DNA of 26,414 nucleotides from a virus (Duplodnaviria; Heunggongvirae; Uroviricota; Caudoviricetes): positions 1 through 26,414 of the IMG/VR virus record IMGVR_UViG_2537561991_000013. The stretch is one strand, 5' to 3'. Below are positions 2,786-19,486 of this stretch, piece by piece. Position numbers and translations under genes: made by a program. The notes beneath the pieces were generated by a model. That model made no database searches. It saw only the letters and a list, made by a program, of their open reading frames with translations, and was not told the origin of the DNA. Every line of letters starts with the position of its first letter. Position 1 is the first letter of the stretch.

Positions 2786-3871
2786 TTACAAATAGAGATA
2801 GTTCAGCGGTTCTCCTGTTTTCCCTAAAAGAAGAGCGCTACGCCCAGGAATATTGATATTTAGAGTTCCGCCTCTAAGCATAAATGCTTTACCAGGGGGG
2901 ATAATTTTTCGGGTATTAATAATAATGTTAACGCTATTACTCCCCATGTTTTTATATTTTCCAGGTTGCAATTTGTTAGGCCAGGCACCTTCAACTTCTT
3001 CGTTTCCTTTATTTATTATAATTAGTCCATCATGAGGAGAGTGATTAATGTTCACAGAATCCCCACGACTAAAGGCCAGAACGTTTTTAGTTGCAAATAC
3101 ACCCTCAAATGCGCTCCATATTCCTGCTTTATCTATATATAATGCGTGGAATTCATTGTAGAGCTGCTGATAGGTAGAGCAACCTTTATTAAGCCACGCC
3201 TCATCGCCAACACGCGTCGACCCATCATAATTTTTAATTTCAGTCGTTGATTTTAATACTTGGCCATCCCAGTAAACTAAAGGCCTGCTGAACGGGAGAG
3301 CGGCCATATATGCCATTGCTAATTGTTCATCTTGTTGATGGTTAAATAGAAAGTCATTGAAAATATTGCCATTGTTAGGAAAATCGTGTTTAATGTTAAT
3401 CAATATCCGTCTTTTTGATGGGATGCTTGAGATTGTGGAACCCGGTTTTGATGCAAGGGTTTGGAGATCGCCACCAAATGAAAAAGCTTTTATCGTCTTC
3501 ATGAGCAATGAAAAATCAATGGCGCTTAAATCATCTCTTTCATAAAGCAGCGATGACATTTGTTCTTCATCCAACTGACAAGTTACCAGATATTCCATGT
3601 AATTCATAACGACTTTTTCATGATATTTTGGGTTAAATAAATTAGTATTGTGTAACCGCTCATTATAATTTTTAAGCGGTGGGGTTATTGATCTTTCTAT
3701 TTGTTCATGTTTTGAGTGTTTTGCTGCATCGTAACGTAAACCTCGTACGCCATATTTTCGCATTTCACGAACGTATTGATTTTGCAGCATAATAACCTGG
3801 TCACTTTTGGGGGTTGTTTTAGGCATTCCATTTAAACGCTTTTCTTTTAATGCATGGAGGTTTTCCCATTC
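2786..3871 (-). pseudogene. GH13 (alpha-amylase family) gene fragment, 5-prime end removed at the IS3 boundary (possibly the ygaQ locus)
   Basis: ORF 2786..3826 contains GH13 region II (GLRYDAAKH) about 30 aa from its start and a region-IV-like FLFNHQQD; the frame stays open upstream with no stop until the IS3 left end at 3872, so roughly 150-200 N-terminal codons are missing. Confidence 0.6.
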
Positions 3872-3936
3872 TGATCTTACCCAGCAATAGTGGACACGCG
3901 GCTAAGTGAGTAAACTCTCAGTCAGAGGTGACTCAC

Positions 3937-4236
3937 ATGACAAAAACAGTATCAACCAGTAAAAAACCCCGTAAACAGCATTCGCCTGAATTTCGCAGTG
4001 AAGCCCTGAAGCTTGCTGAACGCATCGGTGTTACTGCCGCAGCCCGTGAACTCAGCCTGTATGAATCACAGCTCTACAACTGGCGCAGTAAACAGCAAAA
4101 TCAGCAGACGTCTTCTGAACGTGAACTGGAGATGTCTACCGAGATTGCACGTCTCAAACGCCAGCTGGCAGAACGGGATGAAGAGCTGGCTATCCTCCAA
4201 AAGGCCGCGACATACTTCGCGAAGCGCCTGAAATGA
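3937..4236 (+). CDS. insE: IS3 OrfA (transposase N-terminal / HTH component)
   Basis: [32 protein letters not shown]... from ATG 3937 with AGAGGTG RBS; the ORF track starts at an upstream GTG at 3928. Confidence 0.85.
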
Positions 4237-11008: not shown

Positions 11009-11350
11009 ATGAGAACAGTAGCGAGAAGATCGATACAGACGATTGAGCGTCGGACTCAACTCGTCAGTTCTTTTGTTGACTCAAACACAGCAAACGAGTT
11101 CTTCGTGAGAAGACTGAGTGATCGTGTCTCCCCGGCACGTCAGCTGTTTATTGTGACATTGAACAATGAGGTTCGTGACGGTGACGTGATCCCGTTCGCT
11201 GAGATCGCCATGAACAAAGAAAAATTGCGCTATGTTGTGAAGCCAGCAGATCAGTATCCTCAGTATGTAAGCAGTAATCTGCTGAAGAAAATTGAAGCGG
11301 CAATTGCTCTATACATGCAGAAGAACTACAGGGAAATTAACTACCATTAA
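11009..11350 (+). CDS. hypothetical protein (113 aa), first gene of a two-gene cassette at the int-proximal end of the prophage
   Basis: ORF with GAGGAG RBS at 6-nt spacing; no recognisable motif; followed 11 bp later by a second ORF. Confidence 0.5.
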   Translation: MRTVARRSIQTIERRTQLVSSFVDSNTANEFFVRRLSDRVSPARQLFIVTLNNEVRDGDVIPFAEIAMNKEKLRYVVKPADQYPQYVSSNLLKKIEAAIALYMQKNYREINYH

Positions 11351-11361
11351 AAGGTTGCTGA

Positions 11362-12129
11362 ATGGCTCCTGCGTTAATACCTTCATATAACAAGGACTTG
11401 AACATTACGCCATTTGGCGAAAAACGTCTTATTGAGTCATTCTATTTTTTCACTGCCGAGGCTGGCTTACTGAGGGCTGATGAGTACATTGTCAGTTCTG
11501 GTGAGTTTCAGTACTACTTGGATGTGTATCAACTGGGATGTTCCACCGACGACTTTTTTTTAGACTATGGCAGTGACCTTCTTGATTCGAAGGTTCCAAT
11601 GCAGGATCTGGTCAATACCCTCTTGGGTCTTGATATGGTAGACGATAACAAAACGATAAGAATAGGTCGTATACAGTTCAACGACTTTAATTTTATCGAA
11701 GAGAACGGTCAGATGATGACCGGAAAGCAAGTGAAAAGCGCTGTTATCGCACAGGATTTCCAATCAGCAGGTTTGGCGCGTGAGATCTATAAAATGCTTG
11801 CGCGAAAGCATGAGTTTCTCATCTGCGATAACATTCAAAGTATTGCCGGTGGTGCTCTTTGGGCTAGTAGCATCATTCGAATTGCCGAGGTACGGATCTA
11901 CAATTCACGCACGAAGAAATTTATGGACATACTTGGTCCAGGTGCGCGTGGCGTTTCAGGTACTTTGCCATGGAGTGCGAATGATCTGTCTGTAGATGAG
12001 ATTGTTCGCTGGGGTCGTGCGTATGATGATGAAAACTGTTGTCGTCACATTGTACATGTTATCTGTAAGGACCGACTCATTGACGATCAATTTCATGATT
12101 ATGTTTCGATAGGTGGCGCGACAGAATAA
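11362..12129 (+). CDS. hypothetical protein (255 aa), second gene of the cassette
   Basis: ORF closely following the 113-aa gene; no recognisable motif; ends at a bidirectional terminator shared with the integrase. Confidence 0.5.
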   Translation: MAPALIPSYNKDLNITPFGEKRLIESFYFFTAEAGLLRADEYIVSSGEFQYYLDVYQLGCSTDDFFLDYGSDLLDSKVPMQDLVNTLLGLDMVDDNKTIRIGRIQFNDFNFIEENGQMMTGKQVKSAVIAQDFQSAGLAREIYKMLARKHEFLICDNIQSIAGGALWASSIIRIAEVRIYNSRTKKFMDILGPGARGVSGTLPWSANDLSVDEIVRWGRAYDDENCCRHIVHVICKDRLIDDQFHDYVSIGGATE

Positions 12130-12141
12130 CCATCAAAAAGA

Positions 12142-12164
12142 CCCGGCATTTGCCGGGTTTTTTC
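12142..12164. terminator. bidirectional intrinsic terminator (CCCGGC-ATTT-GCCGGG flanked by A-run and T-run)
   Basis: 6-bp GC stem with AAAAAG upstream and TTTTTTC downstream; sits between the convergent 11362..12129 gene and the integrase. Confidence 0.6.
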
Positions 12165-12170
12165 TTCAAA

Positions 12171-13349
12171 TCACTTCTTCATTCCAGATTCCATTGCGGT
12201 TTTCCCGTCGTATTCAGCCAGGTATTTACCGTAATTGCGGAACAGCATTTCCGGCCCCTTATGCCCCATCTGCCCGGCAAGCCAGAAAAGGTTTACACCC
12301 TGGCTAATGTGTCTGGTGGCGAATGTGTGGCGCGTCTGGTACGGGTTACGGTAGCGCACACCAGCTTTTTTCAGGGTCGGCACCCATGCTTTTTTACGGA
12401 TAGCGTCGGCGTTCGTCCAGGGATCTCCCGTTTTCGGATCGCTGAATATGAACTCACTTTTCATAAAGGTGTATTGCTTCTGCGCCTGCAGGGCCGCCAG
12501 CGCCTCACTGTTCAGCTCCACCTTACGGGTACCGGCTTTTGTCTTGGTGCCTTTAAGTACCCCTACGACACTGGCCGCCTGTATGTGCGCTGTATTACCT
12601 ATAAAGTCGATATCGGTCCAACGTAATGCGCATAGCTCAGAGCTGCGTAGCCCTGTATTGAAGGCGAAGCGGAACAGATTCTGCCATTCCTGATACTTGC
12701 AGTGCTGATATATGGCACTGGTTTCCGCAGGCGCAAACGGATCAACTTCGTAATCGTCGGCGTTCGGTTTACTGTCGACCACGTGATACCGGCTGGCGCT
12801 GACAAGAGTTACCGGGTTAATAGTCAACAGGCCATCAGTTACAGCCTCATCAATGGCGCTGCGCAGAAATGACAGGTTATTCCTGATTGTTTTCAGCTTA
12901 GTTTTTCGGCTGGCTATCCAATTTTTTAGTACCGCAGGCGTCAATTCTGTTACATGTAGTTTATGTAGTTCTGATAGTGCTGATAGACATTTTTCGTAAC
13001 CGCCAATGGTTGACGGCGACAGATTGCGGTTCATGCAAATTTTCAGGTATTCATCAAGATAGGACTTAATATTTTTGGTTTTCTTTACTACACCGAATAA
13101 CTCCAGTTTTTTGGAACTGGGGAAATATTTCGCATATTCAAACGTTCCGCTGGCGATCTGATTTTGTATCTCCCCTAGCAGGCGCTCAGCATATTTAATA
13201 CCACGTGTATTTGCCTCAAGCCGAGACAGGGGCTCCCTGCAAAGAACCCCTTTATATGTGAAAGTGATAACTAGTGTTGAAGCAGTTTTATGCTTACGAA
13301 TAGTTACTCCTCTTGGCAGAGATAATAATCCTTGTTCTTTCTTGCCCAT
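12171..13349 (-). CDS. lambdoid-phage tyrosine integrase (not lambda Int)
   Basis: 392-aa ORF from ATG 13349; C-terminal catalytic motifs RHTFATRH...GHKGPEMLFRNYGKY; an overlapping excisionase-like gene lies upstream. Confidence 0.85.
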   Translation of the reverse strand: MGKKEQGLLSLPRGVTIRKHKTASTLVITFTYKGVLCREPLSRLEANTRGIKYAERLLGEIQNQIASGTFEYAKYFPSSKKLELFGVVKKTKNIKSYLDEYLKICMNRNLSPSTIGGYEKCLSALSELHKLHVTELTPAVLKNWIASRKTKLKTIRNNLSFLRSAIDEAVTDGLLTINPVTLVSASRYHVVDSKPNADDYEVDPFAPAETSAIYQHCKYQEWQNLFRFAFNTGLRSSELCALRWTDIDFIGNTAHIQAASVVGVLKGTKTKAGTRKVELNSEALAALQAQKQYTFMKSEFIFSDPKTGDPWTNADAIRKKAWVPTLKKAGVRYRNPYQTRHTFATRHISQGVNLFWLAGQMGHKGPEMLFRNYGKYLAEYDGKTAMESGMKK

Positions 13350-13671: not shown

Positions 13672-13950
13672 TTACTTCCTTTTTATGGCTCGTAATTTTT
13701 TCAGGTGCTTTTCCTGCTCAGTGTCCGCGAGAATTTTGCGGTACTCCTGGTGGTCAATATGTTCGAACAGGCAGTTTAACTCACCAATGCGTACCCGCCC
13801 GGATCGTCCGTCCATCCGTCGAAAGAACACTGAGTGCTCAGTGATGCGAGTAATCACCACGGGGTATCCGGCTCTGTCCGTGTATATCTGACCGCGTTGA
13901 ATCAAAGCGAACATGTGGTTATCCCCATCGACAAATTGAGAACACAACAA
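13672..13950 (-). CDS. hypothetical small phage protein
   Basis: 92-aa ORF in the leftward early operon; no motif assigned; start codon uncertain. Confidence 0.4.
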   Translation of the reverse strand: MLCSQFVDGDNHMFALIQRGQIYTDRAGYPVVITRITEHSVFFRRMDGRSGRVRIGELNCLFEHIDHQEYRKILADTEQEKHLKKLRAIKRK

Positions 13951-14037: not shown

Positions 14038-14606
14038 TCATTCCGGATGCTCCTGAGCCACATTGAAATCGCCATGATCACGACAAGGCATCACAACAAA
14101 TTCAGGATTGCCATACATTGAGTTGATGATGGAATCAAACTGAATTCTGACCGCTTGCCCGTCACCGGAGGAACGTAACTGGACGGGAATAAATTTACGC
14201 TCACGACCAAACATCTTCTCTGGATAACTCAGGTAACCCGCCTGGATCACCGGGTGTGTACAGAGGTCAAATTTTTTCGGAATGATGCGTTCCAAATCCG
14301 GAAAACAACCGTCCACCAATTTAATGCCGGTAATGGACAGCCGGCGCTGAAACTGGTCGCGATGAACAGGATCGGCTCTTTACTAAAAATCAGCTCTGTC
14401 GTTTCGGCTTTGGCCGGGACGCCACCTTCGAACTGGACAATGATGTTTTTCTTCGTCCGGATGCCGTGAGTCATGCGCAGTGCTACGAAACCATTGGTTG
14501 CCTCAATATGTTTTGGCGTGATGTGAAGACCGTTCAGGTAATAACGAACGTCGTTTTTAGCAGCGCACACCAGAGCGGCGCGAATAAGTTTTGACTGGAT
14601 GATCAT
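14038..14606 (-). pseudogene. DNA polymerase III beta-clamp (DnaN)-like gene split into two overlapping frames (frameshift or authentic disruption)
   Basis: ORF 14247..14606 has KNDVRYYLNGLHI...EATNGFVALRM (compare DnaN QDVRYYLNGMLFE...VATDGHRLAV); ORF 14038..14319 in another frame has VDGCFPDLERIIPKK (compare DnaN VDGRFPDYRRVLPKN). Together they are about half the length of cellular DnaN. Confidence 0.5.
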
Positions 14607-15352
14607 GCTTTATCCTCCCATCCGATTACCTGAAAAAGCCCCATCTTCGGGTGATACCAGCGTGTGCCGCGTGGTTCAGCCTCTGACATCATTTGGTGGA
14701 ACGCCGCCATAAATGTCTCAAGCTCGACGACAGCCCTGCGAGACAACAGACCGTCCGGAGTCATAAATTCGTGCGTGTCGGTAGGGATGTGGTAGGCGTT
14801 GACCAGATTCCGACACTTGGCGTCACTCATTCCGCTTTTGGCTACCACCTGGCGGTAACCGACATATCCGGTGCGCATTGTGCCGCGTTTGATGTTCTCC
14901 ACAGCTTTGGTGACCGTTTCGATCTTCTCTTCAACATGACTCAGGCGCTTCTGCTGGCGAACGGCATCGGCGGCCATTGCAGCGATCATCTCCATTTCCG
15001 TCAGCGGCGCGTGAGTTCGGAAATAGCTGTTAACCAGTTCGCGCTGAACCTGCCATGCAAGAGCATCGTTAAAAGGCTTCGTCAACATCAGGTAACCAGA
15101 CTCGAAAAGAATGATCCCTTTGGCAGTTCGCGCGGCAAAGGCATCAGAAAGTGACTCCGTACGTATTACGTCCGCAGTCATTTCAAGAAAATCCACCCCT
15201 TCGATAAAGTGAGAACGGTTGCGGTTAAACGCAGCACGGGCGGTACCTTCCGGGCGCTGGTGGACGTCATCAATTATTGCAAATGTCACAACACGCTGAC
15301 CGCGATATTCGATTACCGGAAACTGTTTGTTGTTGATGGTTACAATATTCAT
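14603..15352 (-). CDS. phage ORF6N-domain protein (antirepressor-like)
   Basis: Start at ATG 15352 (MNIVTINNKQF...) with GGAGAT RBS; N-terminal segment VVTFAIIDDVHQRPEGTARAAFNRNRSHFIEGVDFLEMT resembles the ORF6N signature (RN...F.EG.DF..LT); the domain assignment is from memory. Confidence 0.5.
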   Translation of the reverse strand: MNIVTINNKQFPVIEYRGQRVVTFAIIDDVHQRPEGTARAAFNRNRSHFIEGVDFLEMTADVIRTESLSDAFAARTAKGIILFESGYLMLTKPFNDALAWQVQRELVNSYFRTHAPLTEMEMIAAMAADAVRQQKRLSHVEEKIETVTKAVENIKRGTMRTGYVGYRQVVAKSGMSDAKCRNLVNAYHIPTDTHEFMTPDGLLSRRAVVELETFMAAFHQMMSEAEPRGTRWYHPKMGLFQVIGWEDKA

Positions 15353-15395
15353 TTTTATCTCCAGACAGCCCGGCGTGTAATACCGGGCATATGTA

Positions 15396-16223
15396 TTACT
15401 TAACCTGAATAAATGGTGTGTTGGCACCGCTGGTCATGTATTGCGGCAGTGTACCGTTCCACTTGTTGATGGCTTCCAGCTCCATAACACCGGGGTTCTG
15501 GCGCAGAGCTTCACCGCGTAAACGAATAGCATCGGCTTCGGCCTGGGCTTTTGTGCGAATCGCATCTGCCTGTCCGGCAGCTTCCGCGCGCAACATGTTG
15601 GCTTCCGCTTCGCGCTGTTTTACTTCCTGCTCGCGTTGCAGGGTTTTCTGGTTCGCCGTGACTTTGGCATTAATGCTGTCGATAACAGTAGGTGGGTACT
15701 CCGGCTTACCCACATATGAGAGGCTCATTACCTGAATACCGATGGGCGTCATTTCTTCCTGAATGTCTTTAAGAGCTGCATCCAGCAGCTCAGACTTGCC
15801 GCCGTCGATAAATTTGTCGGTGGTCATTTTGCTGGCCAGTCGGTTGAGTGCGTCGGCTATCTTCTGGCGCAGGTCGGTGTCGGTAATGTCGTCCACGCCT
15901 TTGCGGTAGGTCTGAAAGACTGTGGTAACTTTGGATGGATCAACTTTGTAGGCCACGCCGATGTGATAGCCGATGGTTGTACCGTCACTCATCTGGAAAC
16001 TGAATGGATCATCGTAGGTCTTCATCTGCTTAAAGGTCGGGAAGATGTAAACCTCAGTGTTCCATCCCGTCCAGTAGCGCCCAACACCGACCACTTCACC
16101 GACGCCTTTATCGTCGCCCAGTTTGTTTACTTTGATGCCCACATTACCAGGCTCAACGCGATCGCAACCGACAAGGCCAATGGTCGGCAGAACAAGGGCT
16201 AAAGCAAAAAGTAATTTTTTCAT
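15396..16223 (-). CDS. SPFH/band-7 (prohibitin-like) lipoprotein
   Basis: Signal peptide with lipobox (MKKLLFALALVLPTIGLVGC), SPFH-like core and an Ala/Glu-rich coiled-coil C-terminus (AEANMLRAEAAGQADAIRTKAQAEADAIRL). Confidence 0.6.
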   Translation of the reverse strand: MKKLLFALALVLPTIGLVGCDRVEPGNVGIKVNKLGDDKGVGEVVGVGRYWTGWNTEVYIFPTFKQMKTYDDPFSFQMSDGTTIGYHIGVAYKVDPSKVTTVFQTYRKGVDDITDTDLRQKIADALNRLASKMTTDKFIDGGKSELLDAALKDIQEEMTPIGIQVMSLSYVGKPEYPPTVIDSINAKVTANQKTLQREQEVKQREAEANMLRAEAAGQADAIRTKAQAEADAIRLRGEALRQNPGVMELEAINKWNGTLPQYMTSGANTPFIQVK

Positions 16224-16408
16224 CTTTTATCCTTAGAAAAAGAAAGACCCTTATAAATGGCATAAATGCAGGGCGGGGTCAGACACGCCAGAGCAAAGCC
16301 AGAAATCACTGCTACCGTATCCTTCATTGATATGAGGGCCGGAACGATTAATCCGTAAATACATGTGATAATTGCCAGTGATATAACTATTCTGAAATAA
16401 ATGTTCAT
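16220..16408 (-). CDS. small membrane protein (2 predicted TM), translationally coupled to the SPFH gene
   Basis: 62-aa hydrophobic ORF whose stop overlaps the SPFH start by 4 nt. Confidence 0.45.
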   Translation of the reverse strand: MNIYFRIVISLAIITCIYGLIVPALISMKDTVAVISGFALACLTPPCIYAIYKGLSFSKDKR

Positions 16409-16468
16409 GGTCCTCCTGATGTATTCGGCTTGCCTTATTTAATTGCGTCATGGTTAATTTCGTTTACG

Positions 16469-16861
16469 TCAGAATGGTTTTGTTGCCATCAGTTCGTAAT
16501 ATCCGGCGCTCCATGTGTCATATTTTCTGAACCATTTTTCTGTATACTGTTTCCTGGCGATGAGTCTGCGCAGTCGTCTGATTGTTCGCTGGTGTGCGCG
16601 GGTATACTCTGTGGTTGATTCTCCACGTTTCCATATCTCATTCCTGTTGAAGATAAAACGCTTGTCAGGATAGCGTTGTCGGAATCCTGAACGTTCAAAA
16701 GCGCGGGTGGTCATAAAGAATGCCAGGTAACGAATTGCCGTTTTTCGGGTGAGGCATTTTTTTGTTCTTCCGTGGCGTGTTACAAAAAATAACGGGCCGA
16801 CGGGTGTATCATGTTTCTGTAATGCCTGGTCAATGGTGCTGGCGGTGCGGTTGTCGATCAT
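16469..16861 (-). CDS. hypothetical basic phage protein
   Basis: 130-aa ORF, Arg/Lys-rich; no motif assigned. Confidence 0.4.
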   Translation of the reverse strand: MIDNRTASTIDQALQKHDTPVGPLFFVTRHGRTKKCLTRKTAIRYLAFFMTTRAFERSGFRQRYPDKRFIFNRNEIWKRGESTTEYTRAHQRTIRRLRRLIARKQYTEKWFRKYDTWSAGYYELMATKPF

Positions 16862-17076
16862 TTCTTTATTTCTCCCGAATAACGTTCATGACTCATTACT
16901 TCCCAGTTCCGGCCGTCGTCTTTCGATAACAGCCGCCAGCGACGGTTAACCTTCAGACTGAGATATCCGGTGCGCTGTATCCGATGCGGAAATATCCGTC
17001 GGCATCGGTACAACAACAGGACCTGCAATGCCTGCCGGTGGATCCGCTCAGGAATGCGTGTTGCTGTTAATGCCAC
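16858..17076 (-). CDS. hypothetical small protein
   Basis: 72-aa ORF overlapping the downstream start by 4 nt; overlaps 17048..17263 in another frame, so one of the two may be spurious. Confidence 0.3.
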   Translation of the reverse strand: MALTATRIPERIHRQALQVLLLYRCRRIFPHRIQRTGYLSLKVNRRWRLLSKDDGRNWEVMSHERYSGEIKK

Positions 17077-17263: not shown

Positions 17264-17622
17264 CAGTTAATTCCTCCGCTGATATATTTTTCTTTCGCGT
17301 AATCAATAATCTCTTGAAAAAGGTTGTCTATAATTAACTTTCCGGTTTCAGTCAGGTATTCAGTATGTTGATTAATCCCGATAGCATTCTGGTATGCAGT
17401 GTGGATTTCGGTTTCACCCTCCACCCGGCCCAATTCACCACGGGTAATACCTTCGAAGCGTAACAGCAACTGGTTTATAAACTGTTCAGTTATTTCTATG
17501 GTCGTAATGTTCCCATCAGGAAGGTCAACAATAAGCAGATTACCACCTGTTTTACGTTTTATTCGATGGAGTGCCGCAACAGCTATACGGCGACGATATG
17601 TATTAATGGGTTCATGTGTCAT
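17263..17622 (-). CDS. hypothetical phage protein
   Basis: 119-aa ORF in the leftward early operon. Confidence 0.45.
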   Translation of the reverse strand: MTHEPINTYRRRIAVAALHRIKRKTGGNLLIVDLPDGNITTIEITEQFINQLLLRFEGITRGELGRVEGETEIHTAYQNAIGINQHTEYLTETGKLIIDNLFQEIIDYAKEKYISGGIN

Positions 17623-18607: not shown

Positions 18608-18696
18608 CCTCTATAATTGCTTTGGTGAGTTCGATACCTATGTCAAGATAATAGGTTTACCGATTTCACCTGTCAATCGGTTTATCGATTTTTTCC

Positions 18697-18723
18697 CAAA
18701 AAAAAGCCCACTTAAGAGTGGGC
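18697..18723 (-). terminator. intrinsic terminator of the repressor gene (GCCCACT-TAAG-AGTGGGC with U-run on the minus strand)
   Basis: 7-bp stem preceded on the plus strand by A9, i.e. a U-tract after the hairpin on the minus strand; 19 bp downstream of the cI-like stop. Confidence 0.6.
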
Positions 18724-18741: not shown

Positions 18742-19434
18742 TTATGCAAAACGGTGTAGTGTCATAGGCCAACTGACAATTACTTTTCCGTCAATGTGAA
18801 GTTGTTCGAAGTCTTCCGGTTCGATAGCCCAATCCTTGTAAGCTGGGTTGTCAGATATCACCGTTAGAGTATCTTTGATTTTTTGAAGTCTTTTGATGTG
18901 CGATGTTCCAGAGTATGTAAAGGCGTATATACCATCACCATTAAATGTGCGAACTGATACATCTACAAATACCAAGTCTTCAGGGTCTATTGTGCCTTTC
19001 ATACTGTCGCCGTGGGCGTTTATTGCTTTGATTGCTGATGCTGGTCTGCCGCCAAAAACTCTTGATGCGTATCCTGGTTCTATCGCTATAGATCTGACAA
19101 TATCAGGAAAATCAGAGTTATAACTACCAGGTCCGCAACTATATCTGATGTCTAAAACATCCACGACATACGAATCAGTAACCCAATCTTCAGAAATGTT
19201 ACGTATTTGGTGTGAGTCTGCAGAGGTCACGATTTCCATTGGGCCAACACCCGATGCGAGCCATTCCGGGTTAACGCCCAAAACTTTTGCTATTTCGACT
19301 GTTTTTCTGGAACCGTTGGCTTTGTTAAGTAGTTGATTAACACTGGACTGAGCCATACCCACTTCTTTGGCCAGCCTACCTTGCGTAAATTTTGCGTTGC
19401 GCATAGCTAAATCAAGTCGTTCTGAAAATGTCAT
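18742..19434 (-). CDS. CI-like prophage repressor (N-terminal XRE HTH, C-terminal S24 LexA-like peptidase domain)
   Basis: 230-aa ORF; N-terminal HTH (FTQGRLAKEVGMAQSSVNQLL), C-terminal GDSM serine motif and downstream lysine; divergent from a Cro-like gene. Confidence 0.8.
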   Translation of the reverse strand: MTFSERLDLAMRNAKFTQGRLAKEVGMAQSSVNQLLNKANGSRKTVEIAKVLGVNPEWLASGVGPMEIVTSADSHQIRNISEDWVTDSYVVDVLDIRYSCGPGSYNSDFPDIVRSIAIEPGYASRVFGGRPASAIKAINAHGDSMKGTIDPEDLVFVDVSVRTFNGDGIYAFTYSGTSHIKRLQKIKDTLTVISDNPAYKDWAIEPEDFEQLHIDGKVIVSWPMTLHRFA

Positions 19435-19466: not shown

Positions 19467-19486
19467 TTTATCGGCTTTCCGATAAA
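19467..19486. promoter_or_regulatory. operator-like palindrome TTTATCGG-CTTT-CCGATAAA in the cI/cro intergenic region
   Basis: Perfect 8-bp inverted repeat with a 4-bp spacer between the divergent repressor and Cro-like genes; related CGATAAA half-sites recur at 18640..18690. Confidence 0.5.

Follow-up and report, generated by a model that had tools for sequence, protein, structure and literature searches.

A translationally coupled SPFH lipoprotein and two-helix membrane protein as a putative inner-membrane scaffold module exchanged among phages of Gram-negative bacteria

Analysis of a viral DNA stretch of 26,414 nucleotides (nt) (Caudoviricetes; IMG/VR record IMGVR_UViG_2537561991_000013, positions 1 to 26,414), hereafter the window, led to two overlapping genes on the minus strand, which encode a lipoprotein of the SPFH (Band_7) superfamily and, directly upstream of it, a small membrane protein, here called the partner. 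We propose, with about even confidence, that the two genes constitute a horizontally exchanged inner-membrane scaffold module, which would act early in lytic growth and would reorganise or protect the host membrane. New to this family are its dedicated partner, which is not of the NfeD type, the coupling and sometimes the fusion of the two genes, and their sharing among killing phages, dormant phages and bacterial chromosomes. SPFH scaffolds such as HflK/C, prohibitin, stomatin, flotillin and erlin are structurally understood as membrane cages, and to our knowledge their viral versions have gone unstudied. With the present work an anonymous annotation ("lipoprotein" or "serine protease") becomes a defined two-component system and a widespread mis-annotation is corrected. 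The system is well defined and widespread, and it contradicts nothing in current understanding.

Both open reading frames (ORFs) were confirmed in the ORF list of the window. The partner gene (16408..16220, minus strand) encodes a predicted inner-membrane protein of 62 aa with two transmembrane (TM) helices according to its hydropathy, and the SPFH gene (16223..15396, minus strand) encodes 275 aa. Stop and start codons of the two genes overlap as ATGA at 16220-16223 (minus strand), which is the geometry of translational coupling. A Shine-Dalgarno sequence, AGGAGG, lies 3 nt 5' of the partner ATG (16412-16417, minus strand), and an AAGGA that would serve the SPFH start is located 6 nt before its ATG, within the end of the partner ORF (16230-16234, minus strand). 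The pair is found in the early-left operon of a phiP27-like Escherichia coli prophage, and this region of the window is 99.9% identical to the RefSeq-annotated prophage of E. coli E110019, as it is to the prophages of many other strains. RefSeq names the same two genes "SPFH domain-containing protein" and "hypothetical protein". DNA of the cassette is present in 535 of 5426 complete E. coli genomes, and 198 of the places where it occurs are on plasmids. The preliminary description of this locus had read it as an SPFH (band-7) lipoprotein, translationally coupled to a small membrane protein within a prophage early operon, and each of these points was borne out. A chance origin of the gene pair can be ruled far out, because the small ORF is conserved as a protein (across E. 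coli, Salmonella and Klebsiella, with 27 homologue clusters) and because a profile of the partner, presented below, matches the upstream ORF in most unrelated loci.

The SPFH protein matches Pfam Band_7/SPFH over residues 22-208 (E = 8e-31; 107.9 bits, where the gathering score is 23.6), and PHROG 200, entitled "lipoprotein", with 1e-114. Its N-terminus, MKKLLFALALVLPTIGLVGC followed by DRVEPG, is a lipoprotein signal peptide (residues 1-19) with the lipobox L-V-G-C at residues 17-20 (nt 16175-16164; signal peptide and lipobox together at 16164..16223, minus strand). The SPFH1 and SPFH2 domains follow at 15600..16160 (minus strand; residues 22-208 by Pfam, seen also in the AlphaFold model), then a long Ala/Glu/Gln-rich helix at 15498..15692 (minus strand, residues 178-242) and, after the coiled coil, a C-terminal K-W-N-G motif at 15453..15464 (minus strand, residues 254-257), recognised in family alignments. 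In the same alignments W255 and G257 never vary and P260 hardly does, giving the signature K-W-[DN]-G-x-L-P, and Cys20 is likewise invariant or nearly so, with Asp at +2 and Arg at +3. A motif of the K-W-N-G type was found in 125 of 150 family representatives and a lipobox in at least 113 of the 150, some of the others carrying an uncleaved hydrophobic TM anchor instead, and all of the 100 enterobacterial members parsed have C-D-R at the lipidation site. Some members of the family are labelled "prohibitin family protein" by NCBI. Asp at +2 is the inner-membrane retention signal of E. coli lipoproteins in Lol sorting. From the lipobox, the invariant Cys and the TM-anchored relatives, therefore, the folded part of the protein should be extracytoplasmic, as in HflK/C, and the protein is predicted to face the periplasm by means of an N-terminal lipid anchor.

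An AlphaFold2 model of the SPFH protein, computed as a monomer with 84 diverse homologues in the alignment, reached a mean predicted local distance difference test score (pLDDT) of 83.9. The model consists of an N-terminal (signal) helix, a beta-rich SPFH1 domain (residues 20-94), an alpha/beta SPFH2 domain (96-175), an unbroken helix of 65 residues (178-242, with a pLDDT of about 90), a short helix (244-253) and a disordered tail. The long helix corresponds to the coiled-coil wall of SPFH cages, and the region aligns with HflK, HflC, QmcA and PHB. A Foldseek search against the PDB returned HflC as the best match (1e-14), then prohibitin-2 (PHB2), HflK and erlin-1/2, with E-values of about 1e-14, and further matches included stomatin, flotillin, QmcA and the major vault protein; the probability was 1.00 for HflC, HflK, PHB, erlin, stomatin, flotillin and QmcA. 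All of these proteins, from HflC to the major vault protein, build large rings or cages. A comparison of sequence profiles placed QmcA, HflK, HflC and prohibitin first among the relatives of solved structure. As modelled, the phage protein has the full architecture of cage-forming SPFH proteins. It shares this architecture and an orientation toward the non-cytosolic side with the prohibitins and erlins (Foldseek E-values of about 1e-14), and erlin works with a small multi-TM partner, RNF170; however, these are eukaryotic, TM-anchored proteins, and their sequence kinship with the phage protein is limited to the SPFH superfamily.

Many GenBank records, among them those of phiP27 and Stx2 phages, call the protein a "serine protease" or "putative serine protease". 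Apart from this inherited annotation nothing speaks for such an activity, and neither a protease domain nor a protease fold was matched. Since the signal peptide, the SPFH domain and the coiled coil cover the whole protein, we rejected the label and give it practically no credence; it most likely goes back to an older COG title, "membrane protease subunits, stomatin/prohibitin homologs".

The partner has two hydrophobic segments flanking LISMKDTVA, followed by a basic C-terminal tail, and is predicted to have an N-in/C-in topology, with a short periplasmic loop that bears the conserved P-x-L-I-S-x-x-D-T. Its homologue in phage Pylas is annotated as "2 TMDs N in C in". It belongs to PHROG 1130 (1.5e-23), a "membrane protein" of the moron category. 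PHROG 200 and PHROG 1130 thus contain both proteins, and the entries record neither a function nor the coupled pairing. Alignment of the partner family gives a first TM helix, the motif G-x-x-x-P-x-L-[IV]-S-[AS]-x-[DS]-[TS], a second TM helix and the basic tail. No Pfam or NCBIfam family matched the partner, and a Pfam search with nine partner homologues at E ≤ 10 gave chance-level TM matches only, with neither NfeD nor an Imm family among them. An NfeD identity was accordingly ruled out, and an oligonucleotide/oligosaccharide-binding (OB) fold is impossible in the partner because 62 aa leave no space for it. This is relevant to the SPFH-NfeD operons (QmcA-YbbJ, PH1511-PH1510), which resemble the phage pair in being made of two genes, a scaffold and a small membrane partner, with occasional fusions, and to which QmcA, the best profile match of the phage SPFH protein, belongs. 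The phage partner differs from theirs in having no NfeD OB fold, and QmcA faces the cytoplasm whereas the phage protein is exported.

In size and topology (two TM helices, N-in/C-in, basic tail) the partner resembles a class II holin, and the SPFH scaffold might therefore be thought to restrain a holin-like partner, the phage holin or the proton-motive force until the programmed time of lysis. SPFH proteins are also known to stabilise stressed membranes, the link between YdjI and PspA being an example (PMC8581546). Against such a timing role, which we consider improbable, the partner matched no PHROG or Pfam holin, the module has cellular orthologues, and in all of the phage loci inspected the pair was outside the lysis cassette, amid early, replication and nucleotide-metabolism genes. 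In the near-identical E110019 prophage, more than 10 kb separate the lysis genes from the pair. Compared with the spanins (Rz/Rz1), which combine an inner-membrane protein with a small outer-membrane lipoprotein and are encoded in the lysis cassette, the pair is in the early-left operon and its lipoprotein is an SPFH protein of 275 aa, so it does not group with them.

The pairing of both genes is conserved far beyond E. coli. A hidden Markov model (HMM) of the partner was built from the partners of diverse loci aligned with the N-terminal extensions of fusion proteins (see below), and loci were searched by single-protein scans and with a 12-sequence alignment. In the window and 11 phage records, some of them outside the training set of the HMM, it matched a same-strand upstream ORF in 11 of 12 sequences. 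The partner adjoins the SPFH gene in Pylas, Maja, CKB-S1, ORM_20 and PhiR41_1, is one gene further upstream in the rV5-like 4MG (E = 2e-14) and two genes upstream in the Bruynoghevirus TL (E = 3e-6), and gives a weak match, one or two genes upstream, in phiEa21-4 (E = 1e-3). The inspected phage records with a partner span N4-like, rV5-like, Bruynoghevirus, Bcepfunavirus and SSU5-like groups. Among viral contigs, a match at E ≤ 0.01 was obtained in 61 of 82 diverse loci, and for most of the 20 misses an adjacent ORF with two TM helices and the motif could be recognised by eye. The real exceptions are three outliers of 24-27% identity, one contig and the phiCbK-like phages, the last of which have a multi-TM protein of 116 aa in the partner's place. 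Among species-representative genomes of bacteria the partner was present in 65 of 79 loci (62 adjacent, one fused and two split by an insertion sequence). In a set of 86 diverse loci, the partner gene runs into the start codon of the SPFH gene in 57, with an overlap of 4 nt in 37 and of 1 nt in nine, and another 28 of the 86 have a gap of 13 nt or less between partner and SPFH gene.

Fusions of both genes were also identified. Among the 150 best cluster representatives there are about 20 such proteins, which are distant relatives of 320-392 aa and have, all in frame, a partner-like hairpin, a charged linker, the signal peptide/lipobox and the SPFH domain, so that the SPFH part is placed after an N-in/C-in hairpin and a third TM helix. 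Fusions of this kind are a classic sign of a joint working of two proteins, and they also fit the predicted N-in/C-in topology of the partner. One natural in-frame fusion in a close relative, a protein of 347 aa with eight member sequences, joins a P1-type partner to the SPFH lipoprotein in a P1-like element of E. coli, and was apparently made by a small indel in a 20-nt overlap.

Concerning the relative divergence of the two proteins, the mature SPFH proteins of P88 and of P1-like elements are 96-97% identical to that of the window, but their partners are only 26-30% identical. In a Salmonella prophage the identities are 61% for the partner and 54% for the SPFH protein. Such decoupled histories suggest either that the cassette has recombined internally or that the partner is the variable component which confers specificity; alternatively, the interface between the two proteins may rest solely on the short conserved motif.

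Individual copies of the cassette are interrupted. In Shigella flexneri SFBU1023 and E. coli ECMA0423, about 790 nt bearing IS1 InsA-like ORFs have been inserted (locus positions ~3230-4000), exactly at the junction of partner stop and SPFH start, which uncouples both genes and alters the C-terminus of the partner. In the prophage of E. coli O103:H2 12009 (locus positions 2985-3500) the partner is intact and the SPFH gene is a frameshifted remnant of 331 nt beside IS3 copies; this copy is a decaying cassette.

In the window, all genes between the integrase (12171-13349, minus strand) and the LexA-family cI-like repressor (18742-19434, minus strand), both known from the prophage annotation, are on the minus strand and tightly packed. 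The sole strong minus-strand promoter match is an early-left (pL-like) promoter, TTGACA-17-TATTAT, at 18676..18648. Just upstream of it, a hairpin resembling an intrinsic terminator (18723..18706, minus strand, found by sequence scan) would close the cI-like transcript and separates the cI-like gene from the early-left operon; the next terminator-like site on the minus strand after the promoter is located at 13843. Two 16-nt near-palindromes on the minus strand, AATCGATAAACCGATT at 18690-18675 and AATCGGTAAACCTATT at 18665-18650, overlap the pL-like promoter, and a third copy, TATCGGCTTTCCGATA, is established at 19469-19484 between the cI-like and the cro-like genes. The three copies have a consensus of about ATCGG-N4-CCGAT and are probably operators of the repressor. 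A consensus scan of the minus strand detected no promoter-like site between 16409 and 18648 save a weak 9/12 match at 17622, and none within 60 nt 5' of the partner ORF; on that strand, neither a promoter nor a terminator belonging to the pair itself was detected on either side of it. With no separate promoter detected for the pair, and with operator-like repeats at that of the operon, it is probably silent in the lysogen and transcribed only once the early-left operon is derepressed. Early expression seems to be shared by virulent relatives: phage TL has an annotated sigma-70 promoter just 5' of the partner gene, and in Pylas the pair is located among an RNA-polymerase subunit gene and other early-region genes.

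The position in a pL-type operon is of interest with regard to HflK and HflC, the FtsH modulators of E. coli (SPFH3 subfamily), which are among the top matches of the SPFH protein in both structure and sequence. They share with it SPFH1 and SPFH2 domains, a long coiled coil, an N-terminal anchor and a periplasm-facing folded part. The phage protein might thus mimic HflK/C and tune the choice between lysis and lysogeny by modulating the degradation of CII-like regulators by FtsH, like lambda CIII does from the same operon position. A control of lysogeny has also been voiced for the SPFH gene of a Burkholderia phage (PMC10269572). We consider this explanation quite unlikely, as most of the sampled carriers are virulent phages without a lysogeny decision and the module has cellular orthologues in Dyella. 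Differences from HflK/C are also considerable: the phage module has a single SPFH gene and no K/C pair, a lipid anchor in place of a TM helix and a dedicated partner with two TM helices, and identity amounts to 16-18%. With the NCBIfam equivalogs TIGR01932 and TIGR01933 the protein scores 25.4 and 23.4 bits, far below the cut-offs of 134.4 and 159.4, and an identity as HflK or HflC proper was rejected on these scores and on the single SPFH gene.

Comparison with other phages revealed the mobility of the cassette. DNA homology with phiP27 spans 15367-16412 of the window and that with Stx2 phages 15396-16411, in both cases precisely the two-gene cassette and nothing beyond. The small ORF is also present, unannotated, in phiP27. 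The P2-like phage P88 (4-nt overlap), P1-like phage-plasmids (20-nt overlap), an SSU5-like phage-plasmid and an Enc34-like Salmonella prophage all carry the same SPFH gene, in every case with a small two-TM ORF immediately upstream. Since homology breaks at the cassette edges and the backbones are unrelated (lambdoid, P2-, P1-, SSU5- and Enc34-like), the pair is an accessory, exchangeable module, as the preliminary description had supposed when it set the pair apart from core phage functions. Like a moron, it has a patchy distribution with breakpoints at the cassette edges; unlike one, it showed no promoter and terminator of its own. Among the E. coli genomes no case was found in which the two flanking genes abut without the cassette, the flanks occurring either separately or with it.

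The SPFH family was detected by tblastn in 423 of 50,697 phage records, and its make-up was assessed from rows sampled evenly down the ranking. Most of the sampled rows belong to groups that we take to be virulent, namely the Schitoviridae/N4-like phages (Pylas, S6, SPSP, Pokken, Meara), the rV5-like Vequintavirinae (4MG, SSE121, KNP2), Bruynoghevirus (TL, Clew-1), the FelixO1-like Ounavirinae (phiEa21-4), Bcepfunavirus (Maja, BcepF1), the phiCbK-like phages and jumbo phages. P2-, P1- and SSU5-like elements are temperate carriers. The distant matches reach as far as Lak megaphages, a crAss-like virus and Halorubrum viruses. In bacteria, the pair is found in a non-phage neighbourhood in Luteibacter. 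Of 25 species genomes from Dyella and other Rhodanobacteraceae, 17-18 have it in the chromosome at a syntenic site outside prophages, which points to a vertically inherited cellular version of the module. The original framing of the pair as specific to prophages is not supported by this distribution. It had also been stated that a universal and essential gene in lytic phages would speak against an accessory role; homologues indeed occur in many lytic phages, though not in all of them. A distinct SPFH lipoprotein of 263 aa, the second one encountered here, was observed in the Vi01-like Salmonella phage PhiSH19 (locus positions 1141-1932), with the lipobox LLSGC and with neither the K-W-D-G motif nor a two-TM partner.

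The role first suggested for the pair was superinfection exclusion, in which partner and lipoprotein would jointly keep the genomes of other phages out of the cell, whether made by the resident prophage or, in the manner of T4 Imm and Sp, at an early stage of lytic infection. The predicted location is appropriate, as T4 Imm/Sp, P22 SieA and HK97 gp15 act at the periplasmic face of the inner membrane, and together with Llp and Cor they resemble the pair in being accessory small inner-membrane proteins and/or lipoproteins that act in the periplasm. The patchy distribution of an exchangeable cassette, the fast evolution of the partner relative to the scaffold, as would be seen in a specificity component under conflict, and the early expression in virulent phages, which would suit exclusion of the T4 style during infection, are also consistent with it. 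However, homology of the pair to these exclusion proteins was undetected, PADLOC gave no defence match for either protein or for their neighbours, and no Pfam exclusion family matched. Moreover, with no promoter of its own detected in an apparently repressor-controlled operon the pair is probably off in the lysogen, and Dyella and its relatives have a chromosomal version that is syntenic and passed on vertically. Exclusion thus received no specific support, and we regard it as rather unlikely. The only lead from the literature, on the Vi01-like phages, in which the SPFH gene of PhiSH19 stands beside a "superinfection exclusion protein", was discarded, as that SPFH protein is a different and more distant one and its neighbour is soluble and gives no match to the partner HMM.

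The broader suggestion that the pair organises the membrane or responds to membrane stress is plausible, and the inner-membrane scaffold that we propose is of this kind. The partner would form a hairpin of two TM helices in the inner membrane, and the SPFH protein, whose translation would be coupled to that of the partner, would be lipid-anchored with its whole folded part in the periplasm. Judging by its architecture, the SPFH protein would then probably assemble, as HflK/C, prohibitin and erlin do, into a ring or dome that sits on the periplasmic side of the inner membrane, includes the partner as an integral component and fences off a patch of membrane. Expression would take place with the early-left operon only, after induction or on infection, and while the phage develops lytically the structure would most likely rearrange or shield the inner membrane of the host. 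It would do so either by holding a host inner-membrane machine, with FtsH, in view of HflK/C and prohibitin, as the foremost candidate, or through stabilisation of the membrane itself. A bolder version, to which we attach a small but real chance, is that phages of Gram-negative bacteria, virulent and temperate alike, carry their own HflK/C-like cage, put together from the periplasmic side around a host inner-membrane machine such as FtsH, with the fast-evolving two-TM partner as the adaptor that chooses the target. If this were true, the phage cage would represent a general viral takeover of host membrane quality control, by means of a module borrowed from a cellular system that persists in Dyella and relatives.

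Several points weigh against the scaffold proposal. Oligomerisation of the SPFH protein and its contact with the partner are deduced from architecture, the structural model being a monomer, and FtsH enters as a target purely by analogy. The periplasmic loop of the partner has only about nine residues, which makes its contact with a periplasmic domain hard to picture, and the decoupled histories of partner and SPFH protein are evidence against a tight, sequence-specific interface. The promoter scan was a crude consensus search, and a weak internal promoter could be present. Arg at +3 may weaken the inner-membrane retention conferred by Asp at +2. In the searchable literature we came upon no experiment or functional study on any member of the family. 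Passing speculation has touched on lysogeny control (PMC10269572) and on adsorption or DNA entry (PMC13239085). Finally, a possibly related SPFH protein of a Pasteurella prophage has been reported in outer-membrane vesicles (PMC9872710).

The Pasteurella protein, Pmorf0222 of P. multocida, is described as an HflK/C-like SPFH protein of 25-35 kDa, and its deletion reportedly attenuates virulence (PMC9872710). It offers a precedent, as a possibly related protein, for a surface lipoprotein of lysogenic conversion, that is a virulence factor residing in the outer membrane and in vesicles and sensed by TLR2, and the Arg at +3, if it impaired retention in the inner membrane, would point the same way. 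Pmorf0222 is only a candidate member of the present family, however. Moreover, repression probably keeps the pair off in the lysogen, many virulent phages that infect environmental bacteria carry the family, and both the fusions and the TM-anchored relatives indicate the inner membrane. A conversion lipoprotein is hence a very unlikely explanation, and the inner-membrane scaffold remains our preferred one.

Other features of the window were noted around the pair. Downstream of the SPFH gene, an ORF6N/anti-repressor-like gene is located at 14603-15427 (minus strand), where the GTG start of the mechanically called ORF overlaps the SPFH stop; the likely real start, as in RefSeq, is the ATG at 15352 (MNIVTINNKQ...), which leaves a gap of 43 nt after the SPFH gene. 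At 14038-14606 (minus strand) there are two ORFs, of 119 aa and 93 aa, which overlap; their counterpart in E110019 is a single gene flagged by RefSeq as frameshifted, and it is probably a pseudogene in the window as well. Upstream of the pair, an ORF of 72 aa at 16858-17076 (minus strand) overlaps its neighbours and is called a "ParE family toxin-like protein" by RefSeq in the near-identical E110019 prophage. That prophage copy also carries an IS3-family element (locus positions 11311-12524) that is absent from the window, which has an intact ORF of 92 aa at the corresponding place (~13672-13950).

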